From Clostridia bacterium (GTDB lineage: Bacteria; Bacillota; Clostridia; TANB77; CAG-465), in assembly GCA_045534225.1 (NCBI GenBank), contig JAZSJJ010000001.1, forward strand, positions 54,800 to 118,799: a stretch of DNA of 64,000 nt, written 5' to 3'. Within the stretch, counting starts at the first letter, position 1; every line of letters begins with the position of its first letter. This document shows, piece by piece, positions 1-60,515 of this stretch. The position numbers and the translations under genes are program-made. The notes beneath the pieces were generated by a model, which saw only the letters and a program-made list of their open reading frames with translations, was not told the DNA's origin and did no database searches.

Positions 1-10
1 TTGCGGCTGT

Positions 11-28
11 ACACACACACACACACAC
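11..28. repeat. (AC)9 dinucleotide microsatellite about 135 bp upstream of the first pilin-like gene
   Basis: Read directly: acacacacacacacacac at 11-28, which is unusual in an AT-rich genome. Confidence 0.9.
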
Positions 29-162
29 AAGTGCACTTACTAATGAAAAAACATTAGTAGCGTTTTCGTACCCTAAAATAATAAGTTAAAACAAGCAAAG
101 TAACATACATAGAAATATGTGTGCGGCTTTGCTTTTTTGCATGCAAAAAGGAGGAATGAGAA

Positions 163-963
163 ATGCAAAAGAAACAAGGTATATCCTTAATAGTTTTAGT
201 CATTACAATAATAGTAATGATAATTTTAGCAGCTAGTGTAGTAATAACACTTAGCAATACTGGTGTAATAAACAGAGCTAGTAACGCAGTGGATTTAACA
301 AATGAAAGACAAGTACAAGATATGGCTGCGTTGATTTGGGCGGATGCGTACATGGATAATTTAAGAGGAACTGCTTTAGTGACTAAAGTAATAGAGGAAT
401 TAGGAAAACAAGGTGTAACAGAAACTGATTGGAATATAACAGTAACTGATAGTGGGATTAGCATAAATAAACCAAATAATATTGAAATCAGAGCTGCTGG
501 ACTGTACAAATCAAATGGTGAATATGTTTCGTGGGAAACATTAATTTCAAATGATGTTATTAGAGTATCTGGAACTGGATTAGTTAGCGGCTTCGATGGT
601 GATGGAAATAATAGAATGAGTTCATATCTAGATGGAGAACTTGTGCTACCAAACGATGGAAGCATAACAGAAATATTAGGTCAAGCATTTTGTTGCTGTG
701 AAAATTTAACTGGACTTGTTGTACCAGAAGGTGTTACCGAAATACCAATGAATATGCTATTTGAAACACAAAAATTAACAACGTTAACACTACCAACAAC
801 AATAACTAGAATAGAAGCATACATTTTTTATAGCCCAAATCTAACAACTATTAACTACAATGGAACTAAAGCACAATGGAATGCAATAGAAAAAGACGAA
901 CTTTGGGATGATTCAACTGGAGAATATATAATTTATTGTTCAGATGGAAATGTAGAAAAATAA
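163..963 (+). CDS. Surface or secreted protein. The N-terminus resembles a class-III (type IV pilin-like) signal peptide (KKQGISLIVLVITIIVMIILA), followed by a conserved helical module and a C-terminal BspA-type leucine-rich repeat region. Paralogue 1 of 3.
   Basis: GGAGG RBS 8 nt before ATG 163. Basic residues then Gly then a 20-aa hydrophobic run, as in prepilins but with no Glu at +5. C-terminal LTxLxxPxxVTxI-type repeats. The N-terminal 65 aa are conserved with ORFs at 23748 and 59496. Confidence 0.6.
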   Translation: MQKKQGISLIVLVITIIVMIILAASVVITLSNTGVINRASNAVDLTNERQVQDMAALIWADAYMDNLRGTALVTKVIEELGKQGVTETDWNITVTDSGISINKPNNIEIRAAGLYKSNGEYVSWETLISNDVIRVSGTGLVSGFDGDGNNRMSSYLDGELVLPNDGSITEILGQAFCCCENLTGLVVPEGVTEIPMNMLFETQKLTTLTLPTTITRIEAYIFYSPNLTTINYNGTKAQWNAIEKDELWDDSTGEYIIYCSDGNVEK

Positions 964-13862: not shown

Positions 13863-13921
13863 ATATAACAAAATTATTTTCTGGACATAATATATATAAA
13901 GGATAATAGGTGAAAATATTA

Positions 13922-15091
13922 ATGGACAAAATTATATATGTAGACCATAGTGCTACAACATATGTAAAAAAAGAAGTTTTAGATGAAATGTTACCATACT
14001 TTACAGAGAAGTATGGTAATGCTTCATCACCATATAAAATAGGTGGAGATTCTAGAGAAGCTGTAGAAAAAGCAAGAGAACAAGTAGCAAAAGCAATTAA
14101 TGCAAAAGCGAATGAAATCTACTTTACTGCGGGCGGAAGTGAATCAGATAATATGATAATCCGTGGTATTGCTTATGCAAACAAAAACAAAGGCAATCAT
14201 ATTATAACTTGTAAAATAGAGCATCCAGCAGTTCTAGAAACTTGTAAAGCTTTAGAAAAAGAAGGCTTTGAAGTAACATATCTATCTGTAGATGAAAATG
14301 GCTTTATATCTCTAGATGAACTTAGAAATAGTATTAAGGATACAACTATTCTTGTTTCTATTATGTTTGTAAATAACGAAATAGGAACAATACAAAATAT
14401 TTCAGAAATAACTAAAATAACTAAGTTTAAAGGTATATATTTCCATACAGACGCTGTTCAAGCAGTAGGAAATGTAAATATTGATGTAGACGCATTAGGA
14501 ATAGATGCATTATCTATGTCTGCACACAAATTCTATGGACCAAAGGGAATAGGAGCAGCTTACATAAAAAAGACAGTTAAGTTTACTCCAATTATTACTG
14601 GCGGACACCAAGAAAAAGGTAAACGTGCTGGTACAGAAAATGTTCCTGCTATAGTGGGTATGGGTAAAGCAATAGAGCTTGCCGCAGCCAATATTGAATC
14701 ATACAACAAAAAGCTAATGGAACTTAGAGATTATACAATAGATAGAATTCTAAATGAAATTCCATATGTTAAGCTAAATGGGGATAGAAATTCTCGCCTT
14801 GCAGGTAGCGTAAATATATCTTTCAAAGGGATAGAAGGAGAATCTTTACTTCTTATGCTAGATATGAAGGGAATAGAGGCTTCTAGCGGAAGTGCTTGTA
14901 CATCTGGTTCTTTGGATCCATCGCATGTGCTTTTAGCTATCGGGCTTAAACATGAAATAGCGCACGGTTCATTAAGACTTTCTTATGGTGAATGCAATAC
15001 AATGGAAGATGCAAAGTATATTGTAGATTCTTTAATAGAAATTGTAGCAAGACTTAGAGAAATGTCTCCACTTGATGCAAGCGAAATGTAA
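13922..15091 (+). CDS. nifS: Cysteine desulfurase (NifS/IscS class V aminotransferase)
   Basis: MDKIIYVDHSATT start, PLP-Lys motif SMSAHKFYGPKG and the catalytic Cys loop SSGSACTSG. Confidence 0.85.
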   Translation: MDKIIYVDHSATTYVKKEVLDEMLPYFTEKYGNASSPYKIGGDSREAVEKAREQVAKAINAKANEIYFTAGGSESDNMIIRGIAYANKNKGNHIITCKIEHPAVLETCKALEKEGFEVTYLSVDENGFISLDELRNSIKDTTILVSIMFVNNEIGTIQNISEITKITKFKGIYFHTDAVQAVGNVNIDVDALGIDALSMSAHKFYGPKGIGAAYIKKTVKFTPIITGGHQEKGKRAGTENVPAIVGMGKAIELAAANIESYNKKLMELRDYTIDRILNEIPYVKLNGDRNSRLAGSVNISFKGIEGESLLLMLDMKGIEASSGSACTSGSLDPSHVLLAIGLKHEIAHGSLRLSYGECNTMEDAKYIVDSLIEIVARLREMSPLDASEM

Positions 15092-15190: not shown

Positions 15191-15460
15191 ATGAAAAAAG
15201 CTATCGTTGTCTCGCTCGCTGTAATCGGAGGAATTACTGTTGCTTGTACCGCATTTGTGGGAATCGCAAGTGCTGTACAAGCAGCAAGAGCAAAAAAGCG
15301 TTATGAAAGCATGACTCCCGAAGAACGTGAGGCTCATAACAAGAGGATGGATGGCGTATTGGCAGCCATTTTCGATGCTTATGGCTTTGATAAGGCTAAA
15401 ACAGAGGCTCCAGTGGAAGCTGAAACAGAATCTGCTTTGGCAGAAGAAGTAACGGCTTAA
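15191..15460 (+). CDS. Small membrane protein (N-terminal TM, charged Ala/Glu-rich tail); GC-elevated (about 45%)
   Basis: AGGAGA RBS. The -10 TGTTATAAT is flanked by a perfect inverted repeat CCGAGAA..TTCTCGG. A terminator hairpin follows. Confidence 0.5.
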   Translation: MKKAIVVSLAVIGGITVACTAFVGIASAVQAARAKKRYESMTPEEREAHNKRMDGVLAAIFDAYGFDKAKTEAPVEAETESALAEEVTA

Positions 15461-15498: not shown

Positions 15499-15583
15499 TT
15501 ATTTGATTTGAAAAATAAACTATTTATATGATATAATCTAGTTCGAAGATATTATATATCTAAATAATAATTTATTTGAAGGG

Positions 15584-15799
15584 ATGGTGGCTTGTTTGAA
15601 AACAGCTATCAAAATTGGATGCGTAGCATTTGGCACATTGGCACTTGCAACAGTTACTGCGTATTTTATGCGTAGAAGAAAAAAAGTTGTGGCAAAGATT
15701 GAACCTGAGACTAGAACAAACTTTTTGACTAAAACGGGAGTTTTGGACAGTAAAGAGTTTGTTGCGAAACTTAAAGAGAGGAAGAAAAAGAGCGTGTAA
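15584..15799 (+). CDS. Small membrane protein (TM plus RRRKK and a basic tail), in tandem with the previous one
   Basis: It shares a roughly 22-nt leader motif (aaataataatttatttgaaRgga) with the upstream small gene. A terminator hairpin agagcgtg..cacgctct overlaps the stop. Confidence 0.4.
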   Translation: MVACLKTAIKIGCVAFGTLALATVTAYFMRRRKKVVAKIEPETRTNFLTKTGVLDSKEFVAKLKERKKKSV

Positions 15800-15965
15800 T
15801 CCACGCTCTTTTTCATGTCTATTAACAGGTTACATAAAAAACCTTGAAACCCTTGTAAATAGCGACTTTTTGAGGTGTATAAAATAACGCTAAAAACACT
15901 TGCAAAAGGTCGTATTTTGGTATATAATGATGTCGTGACAAATCGATTAAAATATGAGGTGTAAA

Positions 15966-18900
15966 ATGCAAGAATATTTATTTGAAATTGATAGCGAGGT
16001 CAAACGTAATTTTAAGTTTATAAAATCAACTTATGATTTACTAAACATGAATAATGAACTTAAAATACCTTCGCATTCAGCAGGTCAATGGTTACTAGAT
16101 AACTTATATATTGTAGAACAAGAATATAATAATGCTAGATTATCATTGGAACACGGAATAAGAGTTGGATTACCAACTGTTAAGCCGGCAGACGGAAAGG
16201 AAACACTAAGAGTAATGTTTATGGCAAATGAGATCGTAAACAGAAACAATGGTGTTGTAGATGACGGTATAGTTAGTAATTACATACGCGAATTCCAAAA
16301 ACATACATATGTCACTTTTGAAGAATTATCTGTTTTACCAATTATGCTAAGAATAGCAGTAATAAGATATATTAAAAGAATATGTGTAAACATTTCTAAC
16401 GCAGAAATGCAGAAATTGAAAGTAGAGAAGAGAATAAACAAATCTATCTCTAAAAATGCAGACAAGGTAACTACAAAAACACTTAAAGGTTTAGGTGGTA
16501 TGAAAGAAGAACTTACTATGGCAAATGGTGTTAAAACAAGCAACACTGCTTACATAGAGTATATGGCATACAAACTAAAAGACTTTGGTGCAGGTGGAGA
16601 AGAATACCTTGAAGAATTAAAAGAGGAAACAAACAAAGCGGGATTTACTATCGATGAAGCTATAGAGAAAGAACATGATGAAATAGCAAAAACAACAAGC
16701 TTAATTGCTAATGCTATTACATCAATGAAAACAATCTCAACTACTAACTGGGGAGATGTTATAGTTCACGTTAACAGAATAGACGAAATCCTAAAAGAAG
16801 ATTACACTAAAGAATATAAAAAGTGTGATCATAAAACAAAATCTAGATATAGAGCAACAGTTATTAAACTGGCTAAAAAATATAAAGTTTCTGAAATGTA
16901 TGTAGCTAAAAAAGCAGTAGAGTGTTCATTTAAATATGAAAAACACGTAGGTCATTTCTTAATAGGAGATGATAAAATACTTCTTATTAAGCTAATGAAA
17001 AAGAATCCTACAGGACTTTGGTTATACAACAATGTTGTTAAACCTCTTAAGGCATATATATACATACTATTAATACTTGGATTCGCAGCAACATTTACTA
17101 TAATAGTAGATAAGTTATTTATAGATAATTATTCTATAGGATTTAGAATAACGCTTAACATAATATTATTTGCGTTCGGTATGGAACTTGCAGATAAGTT
17201 GTATTCATACTTAATAGGAAAGTTTGTTCATCCAGAGCCACTTCCTAGATTTAACTTTGCTAAAACTATAGATGAAGAAACAAGTACAATAATCGCTATG
17301 CCAACAGTTATTAATTCAACTGAAAAGCTAGATAAGATGATTAAGAAGATGGAAACTACATATCTTGCAAATAGATCACAAAATATGTATTACATGCTTT
17401 TAGGTGACTGTACATCTACACAAAAAGAATATATTGACCTTGACGAAAAGGTTGTTAAATATGGTAAAAAATTAATTGATGACCTTAATGCAAAATATCC
17501 AGCAGAACCTAAATTATTCAACTTCTTATATAGAAAAAGAGTATATTCAGAATCTGAAGGATGCTATATGGGTTGGGAAAGAAAACGTGGTGCGTTAACA
17601 CAACTTAACCTATTACTTTTAGGAAAACTTTCTAAAGGACAAATAGCAAACTCAATGTATTTAGTACATAATGAAATACCTAAGGTTAAATACCTTATAA
17701 CAATAGACGAAGATACTGCATTATCTTTAAACTCTGCAAAAGAGCTTGTTGCGATTATTTCGCACCCATTAAATAAAGCAGTACTTGCTAAGAATAAAAA
17801 GATAGTTAAATCTGGTTACGGATTAATCCAACCAGCAGTTGGACTAGACATTGAAGCTGCAAACAGCAGTATATTCTCTAAAGTTTTCGGAGGATTTGGT
17901 GGTCTAGACATATATACAAATGCTATTTCAAATATGTATCAAGACATATTTAAAGAAGCTATATATACAGGTAAAGGTATATATGATATAGGACTATTCG
18001 AACAACTAATAGGAGATAAAGTTCCAGAGAACTTAATTCTAAGTCACGACCTATTAGAAGGAAGCTTTATGAGAACAGGTCTTGCATCTGACGTTGAAGT
18101 ACAAGATGGATTCCCATCAAACTTTATAGCATATATGAAGAGAAATCATAGATGGTATAGAGGAGATATGCAAATCATATCTTGGATATTTAGACCTAAG
18201 AGCGGACTAAACTTACTATCTCGTTTCAAAATATTTGATAACTTAAGAAGAGAAATGCTAGATGTATTCTCGTTATTGTTATTAATAGTATCTATGTTCA
18301 TAAAGGGTAATACATTCGTATATGCGTTTGTTGTTACATTCTGTGTAATGAACTTTGGATATCTTTTATCTACATTTGACCAAATAGTATTTGGTAGAAA
18401 TGCAGAGAGAAAACAAAAACAATATATTCCGGTTATATATGGATTAAGAGCAAACTTACTTAAAATGGTGTTTAATATTATAACGCTTCCATATAAAGCA
18501 TGGATAACAATTCACGCTTTCTGTACGTCAATATATAGAATGCTTGTTTCTAAAAAGAAACTTCTAGAATGGGCAACTGCAGAAACTATAGAAAAAGGCG
18601 CTAAAGAAAAAATGTCATATGTTTACAGAAACATGTGGCCAAACACAATATTTGGTTCTGTTATGTTACTATACGCATTATTACATGGTGTAACAACAGG
18701 TAAAGGTATATTTGTATTAATTATGGGTATATTTATGCTAATAGCTCCGTTTGCAGCATATATAATGAGTAAGAAAGTAATATTCGATGGCGGAAATAAA
18801 TTAGACAAGAAAGAAATAGATTTAGTTAAAGAAGTAGGAGAAAAGACTTGGAAATTCTTCGAACATACAATGACAGATCTTAATAATTACTTACCACCAG

Positions 18901-21500
18901 ATAACTACCAAGAAAATAGAAGACCAAAGATAGTAAATAGAACTTCATCAACAAATATTGGTTATGGTGTACTTGCAATAATAAACGCCTATGACCTTGG
19001 ATATATTCCAGTTGAAGAAGCGGTAAATAAACTATATAACACATTAAAAACAGTAGAAAAACTAGAAAAGTGGAATGGTCACTTATATAACTGGTATAAC
19101 ATTAAAACATTAGAGCCATTAAAGCCTAGATTTGTATCTACAGTAGACAGCGGTAACTTTATAGCATGTATATATGTAACAATATCATTACTTAAAAAGC
19201 TATCAGCTTCTAAAATAGTAATGGAAAAATTATCAGACAAGATAATAGAATTACAAAGAATTTGTAATGAATTAGTAGCAGGAGTGGACTTTACTAAATT
19301 ATATGTAAAATCTAAAAACATATTCTCAATAGGGTTTGATGTAGAGGCAAATAAATGTGTAGACAGTTATTACGATATGTTAATGTCTGAATCAAGATTA
19401 ACAAGCTTAATTGCTATTTCAACATCTCAAATAACTTCAAAACACTGGTTTGCGCTTGCAAGACAACTTGTTAAAGTTGGAAACCTAAAAGGTCTTATTT
19501 CATGGAGTGGTACATCGTTTGAATACTTTATGCCAAACCTATTTACTAAGACACACAAATATACATTGATAGACGAAGCATTAAGTTTTGCATTAAACAG
19601 CCAAATAGATTATGCTAAAACAGCTGGTGTGCCTTGGGGTGTATCTGAATCTGCATTTGCGGTACAAGATAACGAACAACATTACCAATATAAAGCATTT
19701 GGTATTCCATGGCTTGGACTTAAGAGAGGTTTAAATGATAATATGGTAATTTCACCTTATTCATCATTAATTTGCTTACCTTATGCTCCTAAAAAAGTTG
19801 TTAACAACATTAAGCACTTAAAGAAATATAATTCATATTCTCACTATGGTTTCTATGAAGCAATAGACTTCACAAAGAGACATATTGGAAGAGATAGAAA
19901 ATATGAAGTAGTAAGAACATATATGGCTCACCACCAAGGTATGGCTCTTACAGCAATAAATAACTTTATAAATAACGGAATAATACAAACAAGATTCCAC
20001 GAGAATCCAAACATAAATGCTTGTGATATTCTATTAAAAGAAAGAGTGCCGTTATCTGTGCCATTAAAAGAAAGCAAGAACTCAATAGACAACAAATTTG
20101 TAGAACCTGCTAAAGAAGCGTTTACAAGTGGTGTTGCATATGAAGATTTTGCTAAATTTAAGAACAGAACTACAGCTATGATTAATACTCATACTAACGG
20201 TAGACTTTCAACTATAATTAAAGACACTGGTGCAAACTTTATGTACTACAAGAACAATGCAATTACTAAGAACAGATTTGTTAAGGATGAAACTTTAGGA
20301 AATGTTGTAGTATTTACAGATAAAACAAGTGGTAAAGTTTGGTCATCAACATACCATCCATTCTATTCTGAGCCTGAAGAATATTCAGTATCTTACTCAT
20401 TATCTTCAAGTGACTTTAGAAGAAAGGATGGACCAATAGAAACAATAACTAAAATATTAGTAGCTCCTAAATTAGATATGGAAATACGTAAATATACGCT
20501 ATTTAATTCATCTAATGAAAGACGTGAAATACTAATAAATACAGAACTAGAACTTGCAATGGCAGACGAAAACGCAAACATAATACATCCTTCATTTAAT
20601 AATTTATTAATAGAAGAATATTATGATGAAAACTTAGAAGCGTTAGTTGCAAGAAAACGTCCTAGAGGAAACCCAGAAGACGATTTCTATGTATTTACTA
20701 AATTAGTAGGTATAGATTTAGCTTATGAAATAGAAACAGAAAAAACTAAGCTATTAAAGGATAATGCTATGCATGCATATGACGGCAAGGTAACCAAATA
20801 TCCATTATGGCCAGTAATGTCATATAGAGCAAGAATTCTTTTAGATCCTGGCGAATCACAAACATTCTATTACTTAACTGGTGCGGCAGATACTAAATAT
20901 AATGTATCTCACGCAATAGTAAATGCAGATAAAGAAACAATAGAAAAAGAAATTCTATTCTCATTACAAAAAGAAAATGTAAATGCTAAATATCAAAAAC
21001 TTGTTCCAAATAGAGCAGCTGCATATAATGATATACTTTCTAAGATACTATTTGAGCATGATAAAGATATGGATGTAAACAAATATTGGGATTCTAAATA
21101 TAGTCAAGCAATGTTATGGAGATTTGGTATTTCTGGAGATTTACCAATTATAACAGTTCCAATAGGAAGATTAGAAGATTCAGCGTTAATTACAGAAGTT
21201 GTAGAATTTATGGATTACGTTAAATCTAGAAAAGTTGACCTAGATATTATCGTTGTAATGGACGAAGAACTATATAGTGGAGAACCTATCAAAACGCATA
21301 TTGACAAAGTGTTAAGTAAAGTGGTATATATGACTTATACAAGAGGAAATATATATACAGTAAACGTAAATACAATGCCTGAAAATGAAAGAGGAATCTT
21401 TGATTTTGTAAGCAGATTAAAAATTGATGGCGTAGATATATTTATGCCAAAGAAAACAAAAGAAAAACCTATGAGTGAGGTGGATGTGAATGAACTATAA
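15966..21500 (+). CDS. Cyclic beta-1,2-glucan synthase-like protein, part 1: N-terminal TM region, a GT84 glycosyltransferase domain, a second TM cluster and an alpha/alpha cyclisation-type domain
   Basis: LLGDCTST (GT84 DxD region), multi-TM blocks and a RTSSTNIGYGVLAI..KWNGHLYNWYN region like the Cgs/NdvB middle domain. GAGGTG RBS before ATG 15966. A TTGCAA-17-TATAAT promoter lies upstream. Confidence 0.7.
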   Translation: MQEYLFEIDSEVKRNFKFIKSTYDLLNMNNELKIPSHSAGQWLLDNLYIVEQEYNNARLSLEHGIRVGLPTVKPADGKETLRVMFMANEIVNRNNGVVDDGIVSNYIREFQKHTYVTFEELSVLPIMLRIAVIRYIKRICVNISNAEMQKLKVEKRINKSISKNADKVTTKTLKGLGGMKEELTMANGVKTSNTAYIEYMAYKLKDFGAGGEEYLEELKEETNKAGFTIDEAIEKEHDEIAKTTSLIANAITSMKTISTTNWGDVIVHVNRIDEILKEDYTKEYKKCDHKTKSRYRATVIKLAKKYKVSEMYVAKKAVECSFKYEKHVGHFLIGDDKILLIKLMKKNPTGLWLYNNVVKPLKAYIYILLILGFAATFTIIVDKLFIDNYSIGFRITLNIILFAFGMELADKLYSYLIGKFVHPEPLPRFNFAKTIDEETSTIIAMPTVINSTEKLDKMIKKMETTYLANRSQNMYYMLLGDCTSTQKEYIDLDEKVVKYGKKLIDDLNAKYPAEPKLFNFLYRKRVYSESEGCYMGWERKRGALTQLNLLLLGKLSKGQIANSMYLVHNEIPKVKYLITIDEDTALSLNSAKELVAIISHPLNKAVLAKNKKIVKSGYGLIQPAVGLDIEAANSSIFSKVFGGFGGLDIYTNAISNMYQDIFKEAIYTGKGIYDIGLFEQLIGDKVPENLILSHDLLEGSFMRTGLASDVEVQDGFPSNFIAYMKRNHRWYRGDMQIISWIFRPKSGLNLLSRFKIFDNLRREMLDVFSLLLLIVSMFIKGNTFVYAFVVTFCVMNFGYLLSTFDQIVFGRNAERKQKQYIPVIYGLRANLLKMVFNIITLPYKAWITIHAFCTSIYRMLVSKKKLLEWATAETIEKGAKEKMSYVYRNMWPNTIFGSVMLLYALLHGVTTGKGIFVLIMGIFMLIAPFAAYIMSKKVIFDGGNKLDKKEIDLVKEVGEKTWKFFEHTMTDLNNYLPPDNYQENRRPKIVNRTSSTNIGYGVLAIINAYDLGYIPVEEAVNKLYNTLKTVEKLEKWNGHLYNWYNIKTLEPLKPRFVSTVDSGNFIACIYVTISLLKKLSASKIVMEKLSDKIIELQRICNELVAGVDFTKLYVKSKNIFSIGFDVEANKCVDSYYDMLMSESRLTSLIAISTSQITSKHWFALARQLVKVGNLKGLISWSGTSFEYFMPNLFTKTHKYTLIDEALSFALNSQIDYAKTAGVPWGVSESAFAVQDNEQHYQYKAFGIPWLGLKRGLNDNMVISPYSSLICLPYAPKKVVNNIKHLKKYNSYSHYGFYEAIDFTKRHIGRDRKYEVVRTYMAHHQGMALTAINNFINNGIIQTRFHENPNINACDILLKERVPLSVPLKESKNSIDNKFVEPAKEAFTSGVAYEDFAKFKNRTTAMINTHTNGRLSTIIKDTGANFMYYKNNAITKNRFVKDETLGNVVVFTDKTSGKVWSSTYHPFYSEPEEYSVSYSLSSSDFRRKDGPIETITKILVAPKLDMEIRKYTLFNSSNERREILINTELELAMADENANIIHPSFNNLLIEEYYDENLEALVARKRPRGNPEDDFYVFTKLVGIDLAYEIETEKTKLLKDNAMHAYDGKVTKYPLWPVMSYRARILLDPGESQTFYYLTGAADTKYNVSHAIVNADKETIEKEILFSLQKENVNAKYQKLVPNRAAAYNDILSKILFEHDKDMDVNKYWDSKYSQAMLWRFGISGDLPIITVPIGRLEDSALITEVVEFMDYVKSRKVDLDIIVVMDEELYSGEPIKTHIDKVLSKVVYMTYTRGNIYTVNVNTMPENERGIFDFVSRLKIDGVDIFMPKKTKEKPMSEVDVNEL

Positions 21501-23646
21501 AGCATATAATGGATATGGTGGTTTTAATATAACAGGAGACGAGTATGAGGTGTTAAACACCCATACTCCTGTCCCTTGGTGTAATGTATTAACAAACGAG
21601 AGATTCGGTACCTTAGTATCTACATATGGAACGGTTTATTCATTCTATAAAAATGCTGGTGAATTTAAATTAACTCACTGGTGTAATGACTGGGCAGATT
21701 TTGTACCAGGTGAAAAATTTAGAGGTATATATGATACAGGGTATAATCTAACTTTTGGTTTTGGTTATACTAAAGTAAGAGAAGAACACGGCAATATTGA
21801 AAGAAATATGGATATATTTGTTCCAATAGATGATGATGTAAAAGTACATTATATAGAAATTAAGAATAATAGAGCTATAGACAAAGAAGTAACTATAGAA
21901 TACACTCCAGATATGGTTATGGGTGTTGCTAAAGAGAAATCTAGTCCATACGTATTATGCAAATTAGAAGATGATGCAATGTACTTTAAGAATCCATATA
22001 ACGAGTTCTTTGGTGGTGTTACTACATATGTCAAAGGTGTTCTGTTAGAAGGCACAGAAGGCGCTGTGGAATATGACGAAGAAACACATACGGTTAGAGT
22101 AAGATGTATTGCAAAGAAGGATGAAGTAAGAAGCATAGCGATTCTATTTGGCGCTACTGATGAAGGAATAGAAAAGGCTAAGCATGTACTTGAAAAATAT
22201 TCTAGCGAGGCCAATATATTAGCTGAATACGAAAAAACAAAAGCGTACTGGAGAAGTAAAGTTGTACGTAATTTCAAAACTGGAAATGAGTACGTAGATA
22301 TCTTAGCTAATGGGTGGTTAATGTATCAAACATTAGCATCTAGACTATTTGCTAGAACTGGACTTTACCAAGCTGGTGGAGCTTTTGGGTATAGAGATCA
22401 ATTACAAGATACATTAGCATTAATTTCATCTTGGCCAGAAAGAACAAGAGCGCAAATAATAAAACACGCACACAAACAATTTGAAAAAGGTGATGTTTTG
22501 CACTGGTGGCACGAACATAATTCAAGAGGAATTAGAACTCGCTTTAGCGATGACTATCTATGGCTACCATATGTTCTTAGTGAATATATATTTAAGACTA
22601 AAGATATGACTGTATTAAATGAGACAGCTTCATTTTTAGAAGATAAACCTTTAGGCGAACACAAGGAACTTTATGATTACTTTGCGCCTACTGGAGTCTA
22701 TGCTACTGTTTATGAACATGCGGTAAGAGCTATAAAATACGGCTTGTCTAGAAAAGGTAGACATGGGTTGTTAGAAATAGGCGATGGAGATTGGAATGAC
22801 GGTTTCAGCAATATAAACGGTGAATCTGTATGGCTAACATTCTTTATGATAGACATATTAGATAGATTTATTAAACTAGCAGATATGATGAAAAACGAAG
22901 AAGATTCTAAATATTTTGCAAACGAAAGACATATTCTAAAACATACAGTTATAGATTATGCATGGACGGGAGAATACTTTGCAAGGGCATTCTATCCAGA
23001 TGGAACTCCAATAGGAACACCAGATAGTCCAGATTGCAAAATAGACTTAATATCTCAAGCTTGGGCGGCTATAGCTCTTAAAGAATATATAGACTGCAAA
23101 GAAGAGATAGATTTAAGCTTAGAGAGTGCAGAAAAGTATCTAGTAGATAGAGAACATGGAGTAATAAAACTTCTTTATCCACCATTTGATAGTCCTAAGA
23201 ATAACCCAGGGTACATTAAAGCATATGTTCCTGGTGTTAGAGAAAATGGAGGACAATATACACACGCGGCAATATGGCTTGCAAAAGCATATTTTGAAAT
23301 AAATAAGCCAGAAAAAGCGTTAGATATATTAAGTATATTAAACCCAATAAATCATAGCAACGATAAAGAAAGAGCTGAGATTTATCAAGTAGAACCTTAT
23401 GTTGTTGCTGCTGATGTTTATGCAAATCCAGATCATGTTGGACGTGGCGGATGGACTTGGTATACAGGTTCTTCAGGTTGGATGTATAAAGTAATAGAAG
23501 ACAATTTTAATCAAGTAGGAACAGAAACTACTGAACTTAAGGAAGAAAAGAAACCAGTTAAAAGAACTACTAGAAAGAAAAAAGTAGAACCGGTTGCAGA
23601 AGAAGTAAAAGAAGAAACTACTACAGAAGTAGAAAATGTAGAATAA
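21490..23646 (+). CDS. GH94 (cellobiose phosphorylase-like) domain protein, equivalent to the C-terminal part of cyclic beta-1,2-glucan synthase. The ATG overlaps the upstream stop.
   Basis: GAFGYRDQLQD and GDGDWNDG GH94 catalytic-region motifs. The start ATGAACTATAA overlaps the TAA of the preceding ORF. Lys/Glu-rich C-terminal tail. Confidence 0.75.
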   Translation: MNYKAYNGYGGFNITGDEYEVLNTHTPVPWCNVLTNERFGTLVSTYGTVYSFYKNAGEFKLTHWCNDWADFVPGEKFRGIYDTGYNLTFGFGYTKVREEHGNIERNMDIFVPIDDDVKVHYIEIKNNRAIDKEVTIEYTPDMVMGVAKEKSSPYVLCKLEDDAMYFKNPYNEFFGGVTTYVKGVLLEGTEGAVEYDEETHTVRVRCIAKKDEVRSIAILFGATDEGIEKAKHVLEKYSSEANILAEYEKTKAYWRSKVVRNFKTGNEYVDILANGWLMYQTLASRLFARTGLYQAGGAFGYRDQLQDTLALISSWPERTRAQIIKHAHKQFEKGDVLHWWHEHNSRGIRTRFSDDYLWLPYVLSEYIFKTKDMTVLNETASFLEDKPLGEHKELYDYFAPTGVYATVYEHAVRAIKYGLSRKGRHGLLEIGDGDWNDGFSNINGESVWLTFFMIDILDRFIKLADMMKNEEDSKYFANERHILKHTVIDYAWTGEYFARAFYPDGTPIGTPDSPDCKIDLISQAWAAIALKEYIDCKEEIDLSLESAEKYLVDREHGVIKLLYPPFDSPKNNPGYIKAYVPGVRENGGQYTHAAIWLAKAYFEINKPEKALDILSILNPINHSNDKERAEIYQVEPYVVAADVYANPDHVGRGGWTWYTGSSGWMYKVIEDNFNQVGTETTELKEEKKPVKRTTRKKKVEPVAEEVKEETTTEVENVE

Positions 23647-23652
23647 TATTTT

Positions 23653-23683
23653 TAAGAGTGCATAGAAATATGTGCTCTTTTTA
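23653..23683 (+). terminator. Terminator hairpin, copy 1 of an identical 31-bp direct repeat
   Basis: taagagtgcatagaaatatgtgctcttttta; it is repeated exactly at 24913-24943. Confidence 0.7.
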
Positions 23684-23747
23684 TGTTTTTATTGACTAAA
23701 GGCAAAATATAAAATATACTATGTATATATGTGCAAAGGAGAAAAAA

Positions 23748-24902
23748 GTGAACAAGAAACAAGGAATATCATTAATAGTATTAGTAATAACTATAATAGT
23801 TATGATAATATTAGCGTCTGTAGTTGTTATTTCAATAAGCGATACAGGAATAATAAACAGAGCGAATCAAGCAGTAGACGAATCAAACGAGAAGCAGGTA
23901 CAAGATTTAGCTGCGTTGGTTTGGGCTGATTCTTTTATGACTGGAAAAAGGGGTGCTGAGTTAGAAGAAGATGTCTTAGACAAACTAAAAGACTATGTAG
24001 ATAAATATGAGATAATAGTTACAGATACAGGAGCTAGTGTAGTTAACAAAGATTCATTATTAAATACAACACTAGGACACTTAATTACAAGTGCCAAAGA
24101 CTATGGAAAAACTATAAATTATGAAGCGAACGGAGTAACAGATTGGAAAGTATTTTATCATACAGAAAACTATGTATATTTAATAGCCACTGAAGCATTA
24201 GCCATGGATCAACTGCCAATACAAAAGATGGCTGCAGAACATAAAATTCCGTTAGTAACAAAGCTTGTAACTAAACCGAATGGAACAACAAAAGTAATTG
24301 GACATATAAATCTTCAAAGCAGTGCTACCCACAGAGATGTGATAGCGGCAACAATACAACGCCCAGAATTATGGATGGCCAATTTTGGGGATTATTCAAA
24401 AAATTATGGCAAGCTAATATCTTGTTATTTAGATGAAACAATATGGGATTTATATAAGAATACAACATCAAGATACAGTGAGTACATAGAAGGAGCTATA
24501 GGCACTCCCACTGTCGAAATGTTTGTAGCAAGTTGGAATGCTAAAAGAGAAGCAACTGGAGATTTTGAAACGTATAACAAGAAACTTGCATTAGTATCTG
24601 ATGGTAGTAAAGGATACTATGTAAATGATATAACTTCTGGTGAGCCTGCTACAAGTAATACGTCTTACCAATATATCACGCCAACCGATACTTTATATAC
24701 ATGGGATTATTCAAGCCACAATTCGGATATATATTTAGCGGGAATGTCTACCTTCGATAACGGTTCGCAAATGATATTACAAATGGGGTATGGTATTAGA
24801 TATTTCGGAAATAATGGTGCAACAGGTGGATTAAGACCTGTAATTTGCTTAAGAGCAGATGTGCCAGCAGGAACAGGAATAAAAACAGATTTTATAATAT
24901 AA
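23748..24902 (+). CDS. Pilin-like N-terminal module protein, paralogue 2 of 3. The C-terminal domain differs from paralogue 1 and is related to paralogue 3.
   Basis: AAAGGAG RBS then GTG 23748 (NKKQGISLIVLVITIIVMIILA). The N-terminal 65 aa are conserved with 163 and 59496. C-terminal PVICLRA..AGTG..TDF motif shared with paralogue 3. Confidence 0.55.
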   Translation: MNKKQGISLIVLVITIIVMIILASVVVISISDTGIINRANQAVDESNEKQVQDLAALVWADSFMTGKRGAELEEDVLDKLKDYVDKYEIIVTDTGASVVNKDSLLNTTLGHLITSAKDYGKTINYEANGVTDWKVFYHTENYVYLIATEALAMDQLPIQKMAAEHKIPLVTKLVTKPNGTTKVIGHINLQSSATHRDVIAATIQRPELWMANFGDYSKNYGKLISCYLDETIWDLYKNTTSRYSEYIEGAIGTPTVEMFVASWNAKREATGDFETYNKKLALVSDGSKGYYVNDITSGEPATSNTSYQYITPTDTLYTWDYSSHNSDIYLAGMSTFDNGSQMILQMGYGIRYFGNNGATGGLRPVICLRADVPAGTGIKTDFII

Positions 24903-24912
24903 ATTTAATATA

Positions 24913-24943
24913 TAAGAGTGCATAGAAATATGTGCTCTTTTTA
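24913..24943 (+). terminator. Terminator hairpin, copy 2 of the identical 31-bp direct repeat
   Basis: Exact repeat of 23653-23683, immediately after the stop of the 23748 gene. Confidence 0.7.
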
Positions 24944-25083
24944 CACTCCCGTTGATTAAGATGTAAAAGTAATCGTTTTAGACATAAAAACTCCTTATTT
25001 GACCTTTTAGAGCCTTTGTGCTATAATTTTATGTGTAAGATATATGTAAATAAATTATAATTATATATTAGGAGAATTAGCAC

Positions 25084-25377
25084 ATGATGGAAAAAATTGA
25101 AAGCCTATGGAGAGTAGGAATTCGGTTTAATGAAGTTCAGTTTATTGGAATAGCGCCAAGGCTTGGTGGGATATTCGGTAACGCAACTGAGCAAGCTCTT
25201 TTAACCAAAGCTGTAGATTATATTGAACAAGCTCAAAAGTTTGCAGAATGTATACCGGTATCCAAGCTGCCTGACGGAATGGAAGTCGTAAGCAAAAACG
25301 ATGTAATGGTGGGTTTTACGCTAATGTTTAAGGAAGCAGAAAAAGCAAAATTATTCCTTGAAAGCATTAAGCAGTAA
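25084..25377 (+). CDS. Hypothetical small protein, GC-elevated (about 40%)
   Basis: ORF with an AGGAGAA RBS and a downstream hairpin plus T7 terminator (attgtcaca..tgtggcaat). No family recognised. Confidence 0.4.
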   Translation: MMEKIESLWRVGIRFNEVQFIGIAPRLGGIFGNATEQALLTKAVDYIEQAQKFAECIPVSKLPDGMEVVSKNDVMVGFTLMFKEAEKAKLFLESIKQ

Positions 25378-27441: not shown

Positions 27442-28773
27442 ATGGCAAAGAAAACAAATAATGGTAACAATGATTATGATATATTTTGTTCTTTTTGTGG
27501 AAGATTTAAAGATGAGGTCGGCAAGATGATTGCCGGCCCTAATGGCATCTTTATATGTGAAGACTGTATAGATGTTTGTAATAAGGTAATATTAGAAGAT
27601 TTAATGCTTGGTGAACAAGAGGAAATGGAAAGAGCCGGTTCTAATGGTAAGGCGAAAGCAAAACCTGAAACAAGTGCTTCTTTAACAAGCAAAAAAGAAC
27701 TAATAGAAAACACAGAGCTTCCTACACCAGAACAAATAAAGAAAATACTAGATGAATATGTAGTAGGACAAGATTCTGCTAAAAAGATACTTGCAGTTGC
27801 TGTATATAACCATTATAAAAGAATAAGAAATCTAGATAAAATAGATGATGTAGAAATACAAAAGAGTAATATATTAATGCTAGGACCTACTGGATGTGGT
27901 AAAACACTTATGGCACAAACACTTGCTAAAGTATTAAGAGTACCATTTGCAATAGCAGACGCTACAACCCTTACTGAAGCTGGTTATGTAGGTGAAGACG
28001 TAGAAAACATATTACTTCGTCTAATACAAGCGGCGGACTGGGATATATCTAAAGCAGAAAAAGGTATCATATATATAGATGAGTTAGATAAGATTACAAG
28101 AAAATCTGAAAACCCATCTATAACAAGAGATGTTAGTGGAGAAGGCGTACAACAAGCACTTCTTAAAATAATAGAAGGAACAACTGCTAATGTTCCTCCG
28201 GGGGGCGGAAGAAAACATCCTCAACAAGAATATTTAAAGATAGATACTACAAACATATTATTTATATGTGGTGGTGCATTCGAAGGCTTAGATAAGATTA
28301 TAGAAGCTAGAGTTGGTGAAAAATCTATGGGATTTGGATCTAAACTTGAAGACAAGAAAGATATAGATTATGGAACAATATTTAGTAAGGTATTACCAAA
28401 TGATATTATTAAATTTGGTCTTATACCAGAATTAGTAGGACGTCTTCCAATAATAACATCTTTATCTCAATTAGATGAAAAAGCATTGGTAGATATTCTA
28501 ACTAAACCTAAGAATTCTATACTTAAGCAATATAAAAAACTACTTAAAATGGATAATGTTGAATTAGACTTTAGAAAAGATGCTTTAGAAGAAATAGTAA
28601 GTCTTGCAATAGAAAGAAAAACTGGAGCAAGAGGTCTTAGAGCAATACTTGAAGAGACTATGCTTAATGCAATGTATGATATACCATCTAATAAGAATAT
28701 TAGTAAATGTATAATTACTAAAGAAGTGGTTACAAAAGAATTAGGACCTATATATGAATATAGAAATCAATAA
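27442..28773 (+). CDS. clpX: ATP-dependent Clp protease ATP-binding subunit ClpX
   Basis: Zn-binding C4 N-terminus (CSFCGR..CEDC), Walker A GPTGCGKT and the pore loop GYVGEDV. Confidence 0.95.
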
Positions 28774-28814
28774 TTAATAGTATAATAATTAATAATATTT
28801 AGATATGAAAGAAC

Positions 28815-28845
28815 CCGTAAATTAATACGGGCTCTTATTTTTTTA
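28815..28845. terminator. Bidirectional terminator after clpX
   Basis: cccgtaaattaatacggg hairpin followed by a T-run. Confidence 0.7.
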
Positions 28846-29187
28846 CTCAAAAGCTTCGCTCATGTGAGCAAGTCTTTTAGCATTCCATGAGATGTTTTTG
28901 GCCAAAATTGTCTTAGCTAAAGGAAGGAAGATATCATCATCCTTGATAGCATCGAAGAAACCTTTGAAGTTTGAAAAACTGGTATCTTCACACATAAATC
29001 GGAATACTCTTTCGAAATATTCTGTTGTAAGTTCTAGTTGTCCCTTGCCGGGTTTACGGTATCTGCAGTTTGGCAGATCATCGCTTAAATATTCCTTCCA
29101 AGCCAACATTACAATCTTGCCGTCTAAGCAAGTAAAAGTGTAATGGGTGGGGTTTTTCTTCGAATCAACACATGAAAAGGTCTGCAT
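28843..29187 (-). CDS. Hypothetical small protein, paralogue A of a tandem pair; GC-elevated (about 40%)
   Basis: Shares an FxxxC-DxxF-x-KGF...D-xF scaffold with the 29315 ORF. Has its own RBS (AAAAGGAGAAAC) and terminator. Confidence 0.45.
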   Translation of the reverse strand: MQTFSCVDSKKNPTHYTFTCLDGKIVMLAWKEYLSDDLPNCRYRKPGKGQLELTTEYFERVFRFMCEDTSFSNFKGFFDAIKDDDIFLPLAKTILAKNISWNAKRLAHMSEAFE

Positions 29188-29314
29188 TTTGTTTCTCCTT
29201 TTAAATTATTAATAAGATTTTTTGAAAATGTATATGAATTATATCACAAAACATAAGATTTATCAAATTAGACATATATAAAAAGAGCTCACAGATTACT
29301 GCGAGCCCTTGTTT

Positions 29315-29671
29315 TTACGCTTCTTCGAGCGCAAGTGACATTCTACGGATTTTATTTGCCATGGAACCAATGTATCCAGCAATAATTCTTTCTGCATCCT
29401 TTCTAAATGTCTCATCCATATTCAGTTGTTCAAGAAATCCCTTATAGTCAGTAAAGACAGGATCGGTGCAGACCACTCTAAATGCCTTATCAAACAAAGG
29501 CTTGGAGATAGGGTGCTGCCCTTTTGTGGGATTGGCGTACGCTTCTACGGCAACTACTTTGCTGGAAGCTTTACATACAGAAAGCTTTACCAGTTTGCCT
29601 TCGGAAAATTTGAAGTCGTACCTAATTTTACTGTGATGGTCGGTTGCTTGAAAAGTCTTCAATCTAAACAC
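29315..29671 (-). CDS. Hypothetical small protein, paralogue B of the tandem pair; GC-elevated
   Basis: RBS TTAAGGAG before the ATG. The terminator is a gagctcacag..gcgagccc hairpin. Similar to 28843. Confidence 0.45.
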   Translation of the reverse strand: MFRLKTFQATDHHSKIRYDFKFSEGKLVKLSVCKASSKVVAVEAYANPTKGQHPISKPLFDKAFRVVCTDPVFTDYKGFLEQLNMDETFRKDAERIIAGYIGSMANKIRRMSLALEEA

Positions 29672-31636: not shown

Positions 31637-32596
31637 TTATTTTAATTTATTTAATGGATTATTATCTATAGCAGATTTAACTTCATCACTATCTATATGA
31701 GTATATATTTGAGTTGTAGCTATTGTTTCATGTCCTAATACTTGTTGTAATGTTCTAATATCTACACCAGCGTGTTTATGCATTAATGTAGCTGCAGTGT
31801 GTCTAAGCTTATGTGGTGTATATTTTTTGGGATCAAGCCCAGCACTTATTATATATTGTTTAACCATTATTTCTACCATTCTAGGAGATATACGTTTATA
31901 CTTTTTACTTATAAATAATGCGCGTCTATCGTCGCCTTTAACCTTATCAACCGGTCTAACCTTAAGATAAGCTTCAATAGCGTCTAAACAGGCCTTATTT
32001 AGGTGCACAGAGCGTTCTTTGTTACCTTTACCAATAACGGACAATGTATCGCCTTTAATATGTTCTAAATTGATTCCTACAAGCTCAGAAAGACGCAAAC
32101 CACAGTTTAGAAAGACTGTAAGGATAGCATAATCTCTTTCTTTGAACTCGCCTTGGACAGAGTGGAGTAGGGCAAGTGACTCATCTAGATTTAAATATTT
32201 TGGTAATCTTTTTTCTAATTTTGGTGCTTCAAGCCCAGAAGTTGGATTTCTTTCAATTTTTTTAGAAATATCACATAAATATTTATAAAATGATTTAATT
32301 GATGAAATTTTACGAGCTCTTGAAATTGCTTTAGTATTTTTATCATATAAATAATTATATATATCTGAAGTTTCTACAGATTTAAAAAAATTTAAATCTA
32401 AATCTGAAATATCAATTTCTTTATAATTTTCAATTTTAATATTATATTTATCACGTTTAATAAATTGAAAAATATCTCTAAGATCATAATAATATTCATT
32501 AACAGTATTTTTAGATCTGTTTTTAGTAATGATTAGATAATTCTTAAGGTAATCTTGCAAAATTACCGGCAAATCGTCATAAGACGGATGTTTCAT
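31637..32596 (-). CDS. Tyrosine site-specific recombinase (XerC/XerD-like integrase)
   Basis: C-terminal catalytic motifs R..HxxR..Y (RHTAATLM..LGHETIATTQIYTHI) and an N-terminal SAM-like core-binding domain. GGAGGT RBS before ATG 32596. Confidence 0.8.
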   Translation of the reverse strand: MKHPSYDDLPVILQDYLKNYLIITKNRSKNTVNEYYYDLRDIFQFIKRDKYNIKIENYKEIDISDLDLNFFKSVETSDIYNYLYDKNTKAISRARKISSIKSFYKYLCDISKKIERNPTSGLEAPKLEKRLPKYLNLDESLALLHSVQGEFKERDYAILTVFLNCGLRLSELVGINLEHIKGDTLSVIGKGNKERSVHLNKACLDAIEAYLKVRPVDKVKGDDRRALFISKKYKRISPRMVEIMVKQYIISAGLDPKKYTPHKLRHTAATLMHKHAGVDIRTLQQVLGHETIATTQIYTHIDSDEVKSAIDNNPLNKLK

Positions 32597-33060
32597 AAAT
32601 ACCTCCAAAAAGTGACGCTCTAGAATCGATTTTAAGACGTTTTTATTAATGGGGCCATATAGTTTGACCTTGAAAAAAAGGCCCCTAAAACGCCAAAATG
32701 GAAAATAGGGCTAAAATGACTAATTTTGTATATAGACACATATATAATGTATAAAATTTTATAAAATGTATATACAGATATATAATTATGTAGTAGAATA
32801 ATTAGAGTAAGACAAGTAAGAGAATATATATGTATAAATAAATAAAAAATATATATACGTAATTAGTCAAAGAGCCTAGAAAGGCTTAATATACATATAT
32901 AATATCAGAAGAGGGCTTCATATGCAATAGTTCCTTCTCCAAAATACACAAAATATCTATTTTGCGAAATAACACATAACAAAATAAGAGCCTTTCTTCT
33001 TATGGACTACTTCTTCTATTATGTGTTAATTTCGTTTTTTTAATTTTGTATTCTACTTTA

Positions 33061-59495: not shown

Positions 59496-60515
59496 TTATT
59501 TTATTAAAGAAAAATCTGTTGTTGTTCCTGCTTTAGCAAGTATTGAAGCTTTTAAGCACACAACAGGATATATACCATAAGCTTCAGTATTAGTATATGA
59601 CGACTCATGCTTTATAGCCGAATCACCCGCTACCAGCACGCCAGTATTGCTATTACCCACAGGCGAAGTTGTCCAACAATAACCACTTTTAGGTATATAT
59701 AAGCCGTCATTCATAAATCCTGATCCGTTTATATTATAACCCCATTTAGTATCACTTAAAACCGGTGTTATGCGTGGCATATAACCCTTAGCGTTCCAGC
59801 CAGCAGCTAGTAATTCTATAGGCGGACCACCTATCGCACCAACAACATTATCCCCATAGTCTGTATAATTAGCAAATGTCGAATATGTTCTTATTAAATA
59901 TGCAACTCCTCGTGCGCTATATGTATATGGATCTGTTATATCAACTTTTTCATTATTGCCTACTCTAAACACATCGTAAAGTTCTAATTCTGCCGCCGTA
60001 AGTTCGTCTGGTGAAACTCCAAGCGAATTAACGTTTCCAAAGGTGCCATAATGTCCAACCTTCTCGCCAGCTATTAAATACACATATTCTTCGTTGTGAT
60101 AATATATTCGCCAATTATTATATGTAGCGCCATTCACAGTTACCGTATAGTCTATCGTATCACCATAATTATCTGGTGTGATTAGTGAGCCTAAAGGTGT
60201 TCTATTTTTAACGCTTGAAATTGATATATTTGTGTTAGAAATACTAATATCCCAGTTAGCATCTGTTATGCCTTGTTCGTCAAGTCGTAATTTTACCTCA
60301 TTTACTAGTTCTTGATCTGTTAGTCCCTTCATATACGAATCCGCCCATATTAATGCCGCTAAATCTTGCACTTGCTTTTCATTAGTTAATTCTACCGCTT
60401 GATTAGCTCTCTCTATTATACCGGTATTACTAAGCGTTATTAATATACTCACTGATAGTATTATCATAACTATTATTGTTATTACTAATACTATTAAAGA
60501 TATTCCTTTTTTCAT
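59496..60515 (-). CDS. Pilin-like N-terminal module protein, paralogue 3 of 3, embedded in the EPS operon
   Basis: MKKGISLIVLVITIIVMIIL.. The N-terminal 65 aa are conserved with 163 and 23748. The C-terminal region is related to paralogue 2 (YVYLIA, PVVCLKA..AGT..TDF). AAGGAGAAAC RBS. Confidence 0.55.
   Translation of the reverse strand: MKKGISLIVLVITIIVMIILSVSILITLSNTGIIERANQAVELTNEKQVQDLAALIWADSYMKGLTDQELVNEVKLRLDEQGITDANWDISISNTNISISSVKNRTPLGSLITPDNYGDTIDYTVTVNGATYNNWRIYYHNEEYVYLIAGEKVGHYGTFGNVNSLGVSPDELTAAELELYDVFRVGNNEKVDITDPYTYSARGVAYLIRTYSTFANYTDYGDNVVGAIGGPPIELLAAGWNAKGYMPRITPVLSDTKWGYNINGSGFMNDGLYIPKSGYCWTTSPVGNSNTGVLVAGDSAIKHESSYTNTEAYGIYPVVCLKASILAKAGTTTDFSLIK

Follow-up and report, generated by a model that had tools for sequence, protein, structure and literature searches.

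A single pilin-like gene, pil2, lies between two identical hairpins in the DNA analyzed here, a 64,000-nt stretch of contig JAZSJJ010000001.1 (positions 54,800 to 118,799, forward strand) from a metagenome-assembled genome (MAG) of a Clostridia bacterium. We refer to this whole 64-kb stretch as the window and count positions from its first nucleotide. On its left, pil2 follows a GH94 gene (21490..23646, plus strand; Pfam Glyco_hydro_94 at 8.6e-97), the second open reading frame (ORF) of a split cyclic-glucan-synthase-like pair; on its right, it is followed by ORF97 (25084..25377, plus strand), which encodes a 97-aa protein, and then by tig. Junction comparisons with related loci (L004, L023, L030, and L038 in our numbering) place a variable intergenic block at 23647..24978 on the plus strand, with the conserved last 18 nt of GH94 as its left anchor and ORF97 as its right anchor.

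The pil2 cassette and its hairpins

The 31-mer TAAGAGTGCATAGAAATATGTGCTCTTTTTA occurs twice, both times on the plus strand, at 23653..23683 (copy 1, of the type called termA here) and at 24913..24943 (copy 2). A search of the window that allowed up to 3 mismatches returned no third copy (shuffled sequences gave an expectation of 0), and the outcome was the same when a 20-nt core was used. The repeat can be extended leftward by 5 nt with 2 mismatches, giving 36 nt at 94% identity; on the right, the similarity breaks off sharply. In each copy, a GAAA loop caps an 11-bp stem that includes two G-U pairs, and the folding energies are -13.8 kcal/mol for copy 1 and -12.3 kcal/mol for copy 2 (z, -3.6 to -4.2). 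The start of copy 1 lies 7 nt past the GH94 stop codon, and TTTTTATGTTTTT follows the hairpin; the start of copy 2 lies 11 nt past the stop codon of pil2, with only TTTTTA (5 T) behind it. On the coding strand, each presents a stable stem-loop and then a U-run just 3' of a stop codon, as intrinsic terminators do; a consensus terminator scan lists copy 1 and does not list copy 2. Copy 1 probably stops GH94 transcription, and copy 2 would stop pil2 transcription and so insulate ORF97 and tig. An Rfam scan of the region from 13 to 33 kb gave no match above threshold.

The repeat period is 1,260 nt and holds a promoter, a ribosome-binding site, and one gene. The putative promoter (TTGACT-17-TATACT; 23692..23720, plus strand) is sigma-70-like, with 10/12 matches in a consensus scan. 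The ribosome-binding site read from the sequence, AAGGAG (23736..23741, plus strand), lies 6 nt before the GTG codon at 23748, which is the start of pil2; the ATG at 23721 is not. The gene (23748..24902, plus strand) encodes a 384-aa modular pilin-like surface protein with a class-III-type signal, a hydrophobic helix, and a globular C-terminal module. The first-pass annotation of this DNA had reported the exact pair of repeats, a hairpin with a T-run at each, and one pilin-like gene with its ribosome-binding site between them. All of this holds in the window, with a T-run of only 5 T after copy 2 and the promoter as an addition.

To the right of copy 2, the block ends in a 35-nt spacer (24944..24978, plus strand) that is found only in the window and in L021, L022, and L038, the loci with pil2-type alleles, and that has no significant similarity to cassette leaders. 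The idea that this spacer, or the spacers of L002 and L005, might be promoter or leader remnants of a second cassette was rejected; local alignments were no better than those of shuffled sequences (p 0.16-0.69).

Site occupancy and mosaic divergence among relatives

With Tig as an anchor, we recovered five related MAG loci (Tig identity, 93-99%; DNA identity, ~89-93%). Cluster members of ORF97 and pil2 gave 20 further loci, and an ORF97-anchored metagenome scan gave one locus. No gene lies between GH94 and ORF97 in 18 of 25 related loci, most of which have a terminator called termB (GAGGTATAAAGA...TCTTTATGCCTC). The site takes four forms. In the first, termB is the one terminator present (L003; L004 with L030-L037 and L039; L023/L024/L028; L025/L029; L042), and in the second, there is one hairpin of the 31-mer type, termA (L005, L013, and L002). 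The third, seen in L001, consists of termA, a promoter homologous to and conserved with that of the pil2 cassette, a different pilin-like gene (712 aa, with PARCEL repeats), a 147-aa gene, and termB. The fourth is the arrangement of the window and is shared by three metagenome contigs, L021, L022, and L038. Two loci (L026 and L027) start too near ORF97 to show the terminator and the end of GH94 and were left out of these forms; the remainder of each matches L023. The course from GH94 through one terminator to ORF97 and tig, which the first-pass annotation had singled out for comparison, is thus what relatives have, and the terminator is mostly termB. Across loci, termA hairpins keep their apical part and vary at the base of the stem. 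This census of forms indicates that pil2, present in some alleles and absent from others, is dispensable and that the site acts as a hot spot, at which different members of the pilin-like family have been captured.

The empty sites that share the background of the occupied contigs (L004, L030-L037, and L039) have termB, as do the loci closest to the window (L023/L024). The pil2-allele block stands in place of a ~60-nt, termB-containing stretch of the empty alleles, such that the swap covers the whole intergenic region rather than interrupting it. The alleles with a single termA hairpin (L002, L005, and L013) have flanks that differ from those of the window, and they lack the 35-nt spacer.

Divergence across the block is mosaic. 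L021 and L022 are identical where they overlap, and identity between the window and L021 was 93.5% at the 3' end of GH94 and 99.3% (9 differences in 1,284 nt) over positions 23629-24912, which comprise hairpin 1, the promoter, and pil2. Hairpin 2 has 4 differences, and identity was 93.6% over the spacer and the ORF97 promoter, 88.1% over ORF97, and 86.7% over the ORF97-tig spacer. The 99.3%-identity tract ends at 24912, and the flanks of the occupied contigs are only 87-94% identical to those of the window. Fisher tests of such contrasts gave p values from 1e-7 to 7e-19 (9/1284 versus 13/171, p = 1e-7; 0/510 versus 13/171, p = 1e-8). The nine differences in pil2 comprise 3 synonymous and 6 nonsynonymous changes; thus, purifying selection cannot account for the low divergence of this gene.

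The flanks of L021 are those of the L004 lineage (98.4% identity on the left), whose other members have an empty site, and the left switch from L004-like to window-like sequence lies within 23629-23646. On the right, ORF97 of the occupied locus L038 is the same as that of the empty loci L004, L030, and L039 over all 294 nt; L038 and L030 have 47 differences up to 4 nt ahead of the ORF97 ATG and then 1 in ~930 nt. A single sample (ERZ27256853) yields both the occupied L021 and the empty L039. The L004-like flanks and the L038/L030 pattern suggest that, in the L004 lineage, a foreign block replaced the region from the GH94 stop codon to the ORF97 start, with crossovers in the conserved coding flanks. 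A second discontinuity lies inside the block, at the left edge of hairpin 2. What lies to the left of this hairpin appears to be a unit shared very recently with the window lineage, and the part to the right is ~7% diverged.

The same signature of recent exchange is seen at the locus of par1, a pilin-like paralogue near the start of the window (163..963, plus strand). Par1 is 98.5% identical to positions 6001-6801 of L040, a metagenome contig (12 differences in 801 nt), and the adjacent miaB-like gene is 91.4% identical in the same comparison (114/1,323).

In the sister allele, the hairpins differ from each other. Copy 1 of L021, L022, and L038 is that of the window, and copy 2 is AAAGAGCACATAGAAATATGCGCTCTTTTTA, which matches at 27/31 positions. 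Because the hairpins differ there at 4/31 positions, the perfect 31-nt identity seen in the window is secondary and peculiar to this genome. The divergent copy 2 also indicates that the two-hairpin layout and the 35-nt spacer were in place before the right-hand parts of the alleles diverged, and the presence of termB in empty alleles of the same background indicates that neither copy is a duplicate of a resident terminator made at insertion. The perfect identity is explained most economically by gene conversion across the 1.26 kb that separates the copies or by resolution of the recent exchange inside the hairpin; if outgroup alleles have the AAAGAGCACATAGAAATATGCGCTC form, gene conversion would fall in the window lineage. 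The view that the cassette was inserted by duplication or recombination at a terminator, put forward in the first-pass annotation, therefore survives in part: there is a discrete, dispensable cassette, but the termB empty sites and the 4/31 differences contradict an origin by terminator duplication.

ORF97 had been described as a GC-rich orphan. Its GC content is elevated (38.4% versus 30.5% for the window, in the top 2.7% of 294-nt windows), but orthologues with 73-93% identity are present in every related locus examined, always directly upstream of tig. We found 17 clusters among 5.8 billion proteins, all of them in this clade, and no Pfam or NCBIfam match. Synonymous codon changes exceed nonsynonymous changes by ~3:1 in 5 of 6 comparisons, and a near-consensus, presumably strong promoter (TTGACC-17-TATAAT with TG; 24999..25027, plus strand) is conserved in all relatives. 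ORF97 is thus a real small gene, restricted to this lineage and under purifying selection, and not an orphan.

On the other side of the block, the cyclic-glucan-synthase-like gene is split into an ORF at 15954-21500 (1,848 aa, with GT2, glucoamylase, and GH94 sandwich domains) and the 718-aa GH94 ORF at 21490-23646, which overlap by 11 nt. The identical split and overlap are called in L025, L030-L033, and L042, which argues for a conserved two-gene (or frameshift) arrangement and against a sequencing error.

Probable replacement through conserved flanks and its alternatives

Scans for mobility genes covered the 30 larger ORFs of the window. Neither a transposase nor an intI-like gene was found among the ORFs scanned, and the cassette ends carry no terminal inverted repeats. 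Those 30 ORFs include a single recombinase, a tyrosine recombinase of the Xer type with 323 aa (31637-32608, minus strand; Phage_integrase plus a SAM-like N domain), which lies 6.7 kb downstream of the cassette. It is 94-99% conserved in L001-L004, whether the site is full or empty, and is most likely a housekeeping XerC/D. IMG/VR viral contigs contained no exact match to the hairpin and no relative of the family; with these results and nothing beyond a sub-threshold holin match, an origin from a phage or mobile element was rejected. Since no dedicated machinery was found, ordinary homologous replacement via the conserved flanks is the best-supported mechanism.

We hypothesize that the GH94-ORF97 region is a recombination hot spot, that alternative alleles of it coexist in this genus of low-GC, uncultured Clostridia, and that the alleles are replaced through their flanks, and we assign this explanation a probability of roughly 0.6. 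The allele of this genome would be a self-contained expression unit made up of a hairpin, a sigma-70-type promoter, a ribosome-binding site, pil2, a second hairpin, and the 35-nt spacer. The whole block would be gained or lost by homologous replacement, with crossovers falling within the final, conserved 18 nt of GH94 and where ORF97 begins. By whichever route the DNA may have passed, the unit consisting of hairpin 1, the promoter, and pil2 would have been exchanged very recently between lineages that are 6-13% apart in their flanks; on the right, this exchange would have broken off where hairpin 2 begins. The two-hairpin architecture would be older than this exchange, and the hairpins may supply short internal homology. 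The 31-nt identity in the window would have arisen by local gene conversion, or by a crossover resolved in the hairpin, and not as a fresh target-site duplication.

Several points weigh against this explanation. No empty-site genome of the window's own species was found among the loci compared, and the single-hairpin alleles, which are without the window's flanks and spacer, are therefore not simple excision products of the window allele. The right-hand breakpoint is bounded just to 24403-24913, and its placement at the hairpin assumes that background divergence would otherwise be visible. L021, L022, and L038 are identical where they overlap and amount to one independent sister allele, which polarizes neither the direction of transfer nor the choice between gene conversion and faster divergence of copy 2. 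Finally, the terminator and promoter functions of the cassette are predictions from sequence.

The alternative that survives best, which we nonetheless consider unlikely, is excision mediated by the repeats. A 1,260-bp circle carrying one hairpin, the promoter, and pil2 would be released and would reintegrate in Campbell fashion at a resident hairpin, in a RecA-dependent manner or by replication slippage, a scheme that has been proposed for the wzy locus of Salmonella. The extent of the exchanged tract fits this scheme well: it takes in copy 1, breaks off as copy 2 begins, and is almost exactly one repeat period long. The 31 bp of the repeat also exceed the minimal processing segment for RecA/RecBC, quoted as 23-27 bp (PMC12074656). 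A single termA-type hairpin stands at the site in three species, and the cassette of L001 sits behind the same hairpin type. The single-hairpin alleles nevertheless have different flanks and no 35-nt spacer, and the imported block in L021/L038 does not end at hairpin 2 but continues ~140 nt past it, to the start of ORF97.

Two further explanations would give the hairpin itself a role in mobility. Its apical core, ACATAGAAATATGTG, is also found at 107-121, within a longer terminator-like hairpin with a T-run (91..138, plus strand) that lies 24 nt upstream of par1 and has been conserved in both L040 and L041. Across 309 kb of sequence from 41 related loci, the core occurs only at the GH94-ORF97 site and upstream of par1, so the 31-mer is not a common genome-wide terminator, a possibility that would have weakened the cassette interpretation. 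A termA-type hairpin thus precedes three different pilin-like genes (pil2, the gene of L001, and par1). Other members of the family are without it (the paralogue par3, a clpX-linked insert in L002, L010, and L011). The association is suggestive of a shared 5' module, though not a general one. Terminator duplication as a general trait of the family was rejected; par1, par3, the clpX insert of L002, L010, and L011 have unrelated upstream and downstream terminators.

One of these explanations, which we regard as very doubtful, is that the termA hairpin, beyond its terminator role, serves as the recombination handle of integrase-less pilin-like expression cassettes, each built of a hairpin, a promoter, a conserved N-terminal module, and a variable adhesive module, and that these hop between intergenic sites and between species, either by hairpin-to-hairpin recombination upon uptake of single-stranded DNA or through a housekeeping Xer-type recombinase. 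If it were true, these cassettes would be a Gram-positive counterpart of integron or dif-module cassettes, devoted to diversifying pilus tips.

The other is that a dedicated cassette system of the integron-attC or Xer/dif-module type uses the hairpin as its recombination site and that a trans-acting tyrosine recombinase moves pilin-like cassettes from one such hairpin to another. The common apical core ahead of the three genes, its retention while the base of the stem varies, and the Xer-type gene 6.7 kb downstream would all fit. We nevertheless hold this to be very improbable. The recombinase is conserved irrespective of occupancy, as expected of housekeeping XerC/D, and several family members lack this hairpin. 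dif and pdif sites are 28-31 bp long, with two 11-bp arms around a 6-8 bp center; the arms of the hairpin are 4 nt apart (GAAA), which is too short for the 6-8 bp overlap of a tyrosine recombinase. Integron attC sites span 57-141 bp with R''/L''-L'/R' boxes, and integron cassette ORFs are promoterless and lie next to intI. Here we find a 26-nt hairpin, a cassette with its own promoter, no intI-like gene among the 30 larger ORFs scanned, only a conserved Xer-type core gene, and two copies of the hairpin with no array.

In a further scenario, a transposon-type or staggered-cut event would have inserted the cassette and copied the resident GH94 terminator into a target-site duplication of 31 bp. 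The perfect direct repeats that directly flank a single-gene insert would fit, but this scenario is highly improbable. The empty sites of the closest background have a different terminator, termB, the copies differ at 4/31 positions in the sister allele, and an extra 35-nt spacer comes with the insert. Inverted ends were not found, nor was a transposase among the ORFs scanned, and 31 bp far exceeds known target duplications. An assembly artefact, in which a de Bruijn loop at a 31-mer (a common k-mer size) would have made the chromosome of this MAG run through a pil2 segment that is circular or unlinked to it, is scarcely credible, since the same architecture is present in three other assemblies (L021, L022, and L038, two of them named k141, MEGAHIT-style), in which the nonidentical hairpins make such a loop impossible, and since the repeat extends imperfectly to 36 nt.

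The pil2 family and comparison with known systems

The N terminus of Pil2 reads MNKKQG/ISLIVLVITIIVMIILA (also given as MNKKQG / ISLIVLVITIIVMIILASVVV) and is laid out like a class III (prepilin) signal, in which a short basic leader ending in Gly is followed by ~20 hydrophobic residues; this region is near-invariant across 56 homologues. In the AlphaFold model (confidence score pLDDT, 89), a helix over residues 5-64 precedes the globular part. The canonical Glu5 is absent, and Val occupies position +5 in Pil2, Par1, Par3, and every homologue inspected. N_methyl and pilin hidden Markov models from Pfam and NCBIfam (E up to 1-5) gave no match, except for a weak TadF match for Par1.

At E <=1e-3, the family comprises 940 clusters, nearly all from metagenomes and "Clostridia bacterium" MAGs, and NCBI labels some members "type II secretion system protein." A homologue with 51% identity to Pil2 (P0006, in L010) is encoded directly after an A24 prepilin peptidase, two T2SSE ATPases, and a T2SSF platform protein, a PilD-PilB-PilT-PilC operon. 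Pil2 itself is unlinked to pilus-assembly genes, with no prepilin peptidase, assembly ATPase, or platform gene among 37 window ORFs scanned, which comprised the 30 larger ones and small ORFs at 15191-15460, 15538-15816, 28843-29187, and 29315-29671. The label "pilin-like" given at first pass thus holds only in part; the model searches and the Val in place of Glu5 do not bear it out, although the operon-linked homologue points that way. The TANB77 pilin paper (PMC11680825) concerns a Tad-type cluster and offers no basis for assigning the pil2 family.

Both paralogues in the window share the N-terminal module. Par1 is 59% identical to Pil2 across the N-terminal 96 aa and has a BspA-type leucine-rich-repeat (LRR) C-terminal module (Pfam LRR_5). 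Par3 (59496..60515, minus strand), with a C-terminal module as in Pil2 (33.5% identity over the full length), is encoded within a polysaccharide-synthesis cluster. Elsewhere, homologues follow addB, rpoD, clpX, or an HTH gene. These dispersed positions point to a family of single-gene units, in which an N-terminal module that hardly varies is joined to one of several interchangeable C-terminal modules.

Several observations were made around other family members. In L002, positions 13245-14766 (corresponding to window positions 28773-28803) hold a different family member, 484 aa long and preceded by its own promoter, which is flanked by the clpX stop codon and a shared bidirectional terminator. 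Neither the window nor the other relatives have this insert, and no terminator is duplicated around it; the family thus has a second hot spot for insertion here. Next to a terminator, too, ~430 nt of the window (28846-29276, with a 114-aa minus-strand ORF at 28843-29187 that has no Pfam match) align in L002 and L004 and, by alignment coordinates only, are missing from L001 and L003. Upstream of par1 (window 1-162; L040 5825-6000), a promoter-like site is followed by a 33-codon ORF (called in L040 and L041) and then by the termA-like hairpin. There is no promoter between this hairpin and the par1 ribosome-binding site, and the layout resembles a leader-peptide attenuator. A (CA)9 microsatellite lies within the 33-codon ORF at ~12-29 of the window, where L040 has TATACACACAAAAAAG, and both length and reading frame change as a result. 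Finally, among the contigs carrying P0020 (L016-L020), 5 of 6 end 118-135 nt upstream of the start codon of the pilin-like gene. This suggests that the conserved 5' module (leader and N-terminal coding sequence, ~75% DNA identity between paralogues) acts as a dispersed repeat that breaks assemblies.

The locus offers a base-resolved example of surface-protein turnover in an uncultured lineage of gut Clostridia, in which single pilin-like genes, with their own promoter and terminators, would be swapped at intergenic sites between housekeeping genes and would pass between species-level lineages. With >900 clusters, no Pfam or NCBIfam model, no Glu5, and modules of the adhesin type, the members of this large family are candidate variable pilus-tip or surface adhesins of animal-gut bacteria. 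There is also a warning for annotation: perfect repeats around a gene need not mean target duplication, because the repeats here predate their identity.

Modular pilins have been described in Streptococcus sanguinis, PilB being an example (PMC8179133). Such modular type IV pilins of monoderms, and orphan pilin genes outside pilus operons, resemble the pil2 family in their short charged leader ending in Gly, hydrophobic N-terminal helix, and grafted C-terminal module, which in the pil2 family consists of LRRs, PARCEL repeats, or an unknown fold. The pil2 family differs in having Val for Glu5, no pilin model match, and many dispersed single-gene copies, each with its own promoter. Integron attC cassettes and Acinetobacter pdif modules are similar in that short imperfect palindromes border single-gene modules and are conserved at their ends and variable in the rest. 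They differ from the pil2 cassette, which has its own promoter and a 26-nt hairpin with a 4-nt loop in only two copies; no integron integrase was found among the 30 larger ORFs, and the nearby Xer-type recombinase is a conserved core gene.

The closest documented analogue is the wzy locus of Salmonella Typhimurium, where a single surface-structure gene is bordered by 113-bp perfect direct repeats (attL/attR-wzy), excises, and can be regained from neighboring cells (PMC12074656). Both loci have one surface gene between housekeeping genes, perfect direct repeats, presence or absence in close relatives, and no dedicated recombinase identified. In the wzy case, however, the deleted allele retains one repeat and the circle has been detected, whereas here the co-occurring empty allele has a different terminator, and no allele with one repeat and the same flanks was found; the key diagnostic of the wzy locus, an empty allele that keeps one repeat, thus fails. 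The repeats here are also 31-bp terminator hairpins, identical in the window (31/31) and not in the sister allele (27/31 in L021, L022, and L038). Replacement islands such as capsule, O-antigen, and pilin glycosylation loci share with the pil2 site nonhomologous alleles at one position, crossovers in conserved flanking genes, and mosaic divergence across species-level lineages; the pil2 block differs from them in comprising one gene and 1.3 kb, with duplicated terminator hairpins at its bounds and an internal breakpoint at a hairpin. The cassette is an ordinary accessory-gene polymorphism, to be placed among small replacement islets for variable surface proteins, and its uncommon features are the duplicated terminator hairpins and the internal breakpoint at one of them.

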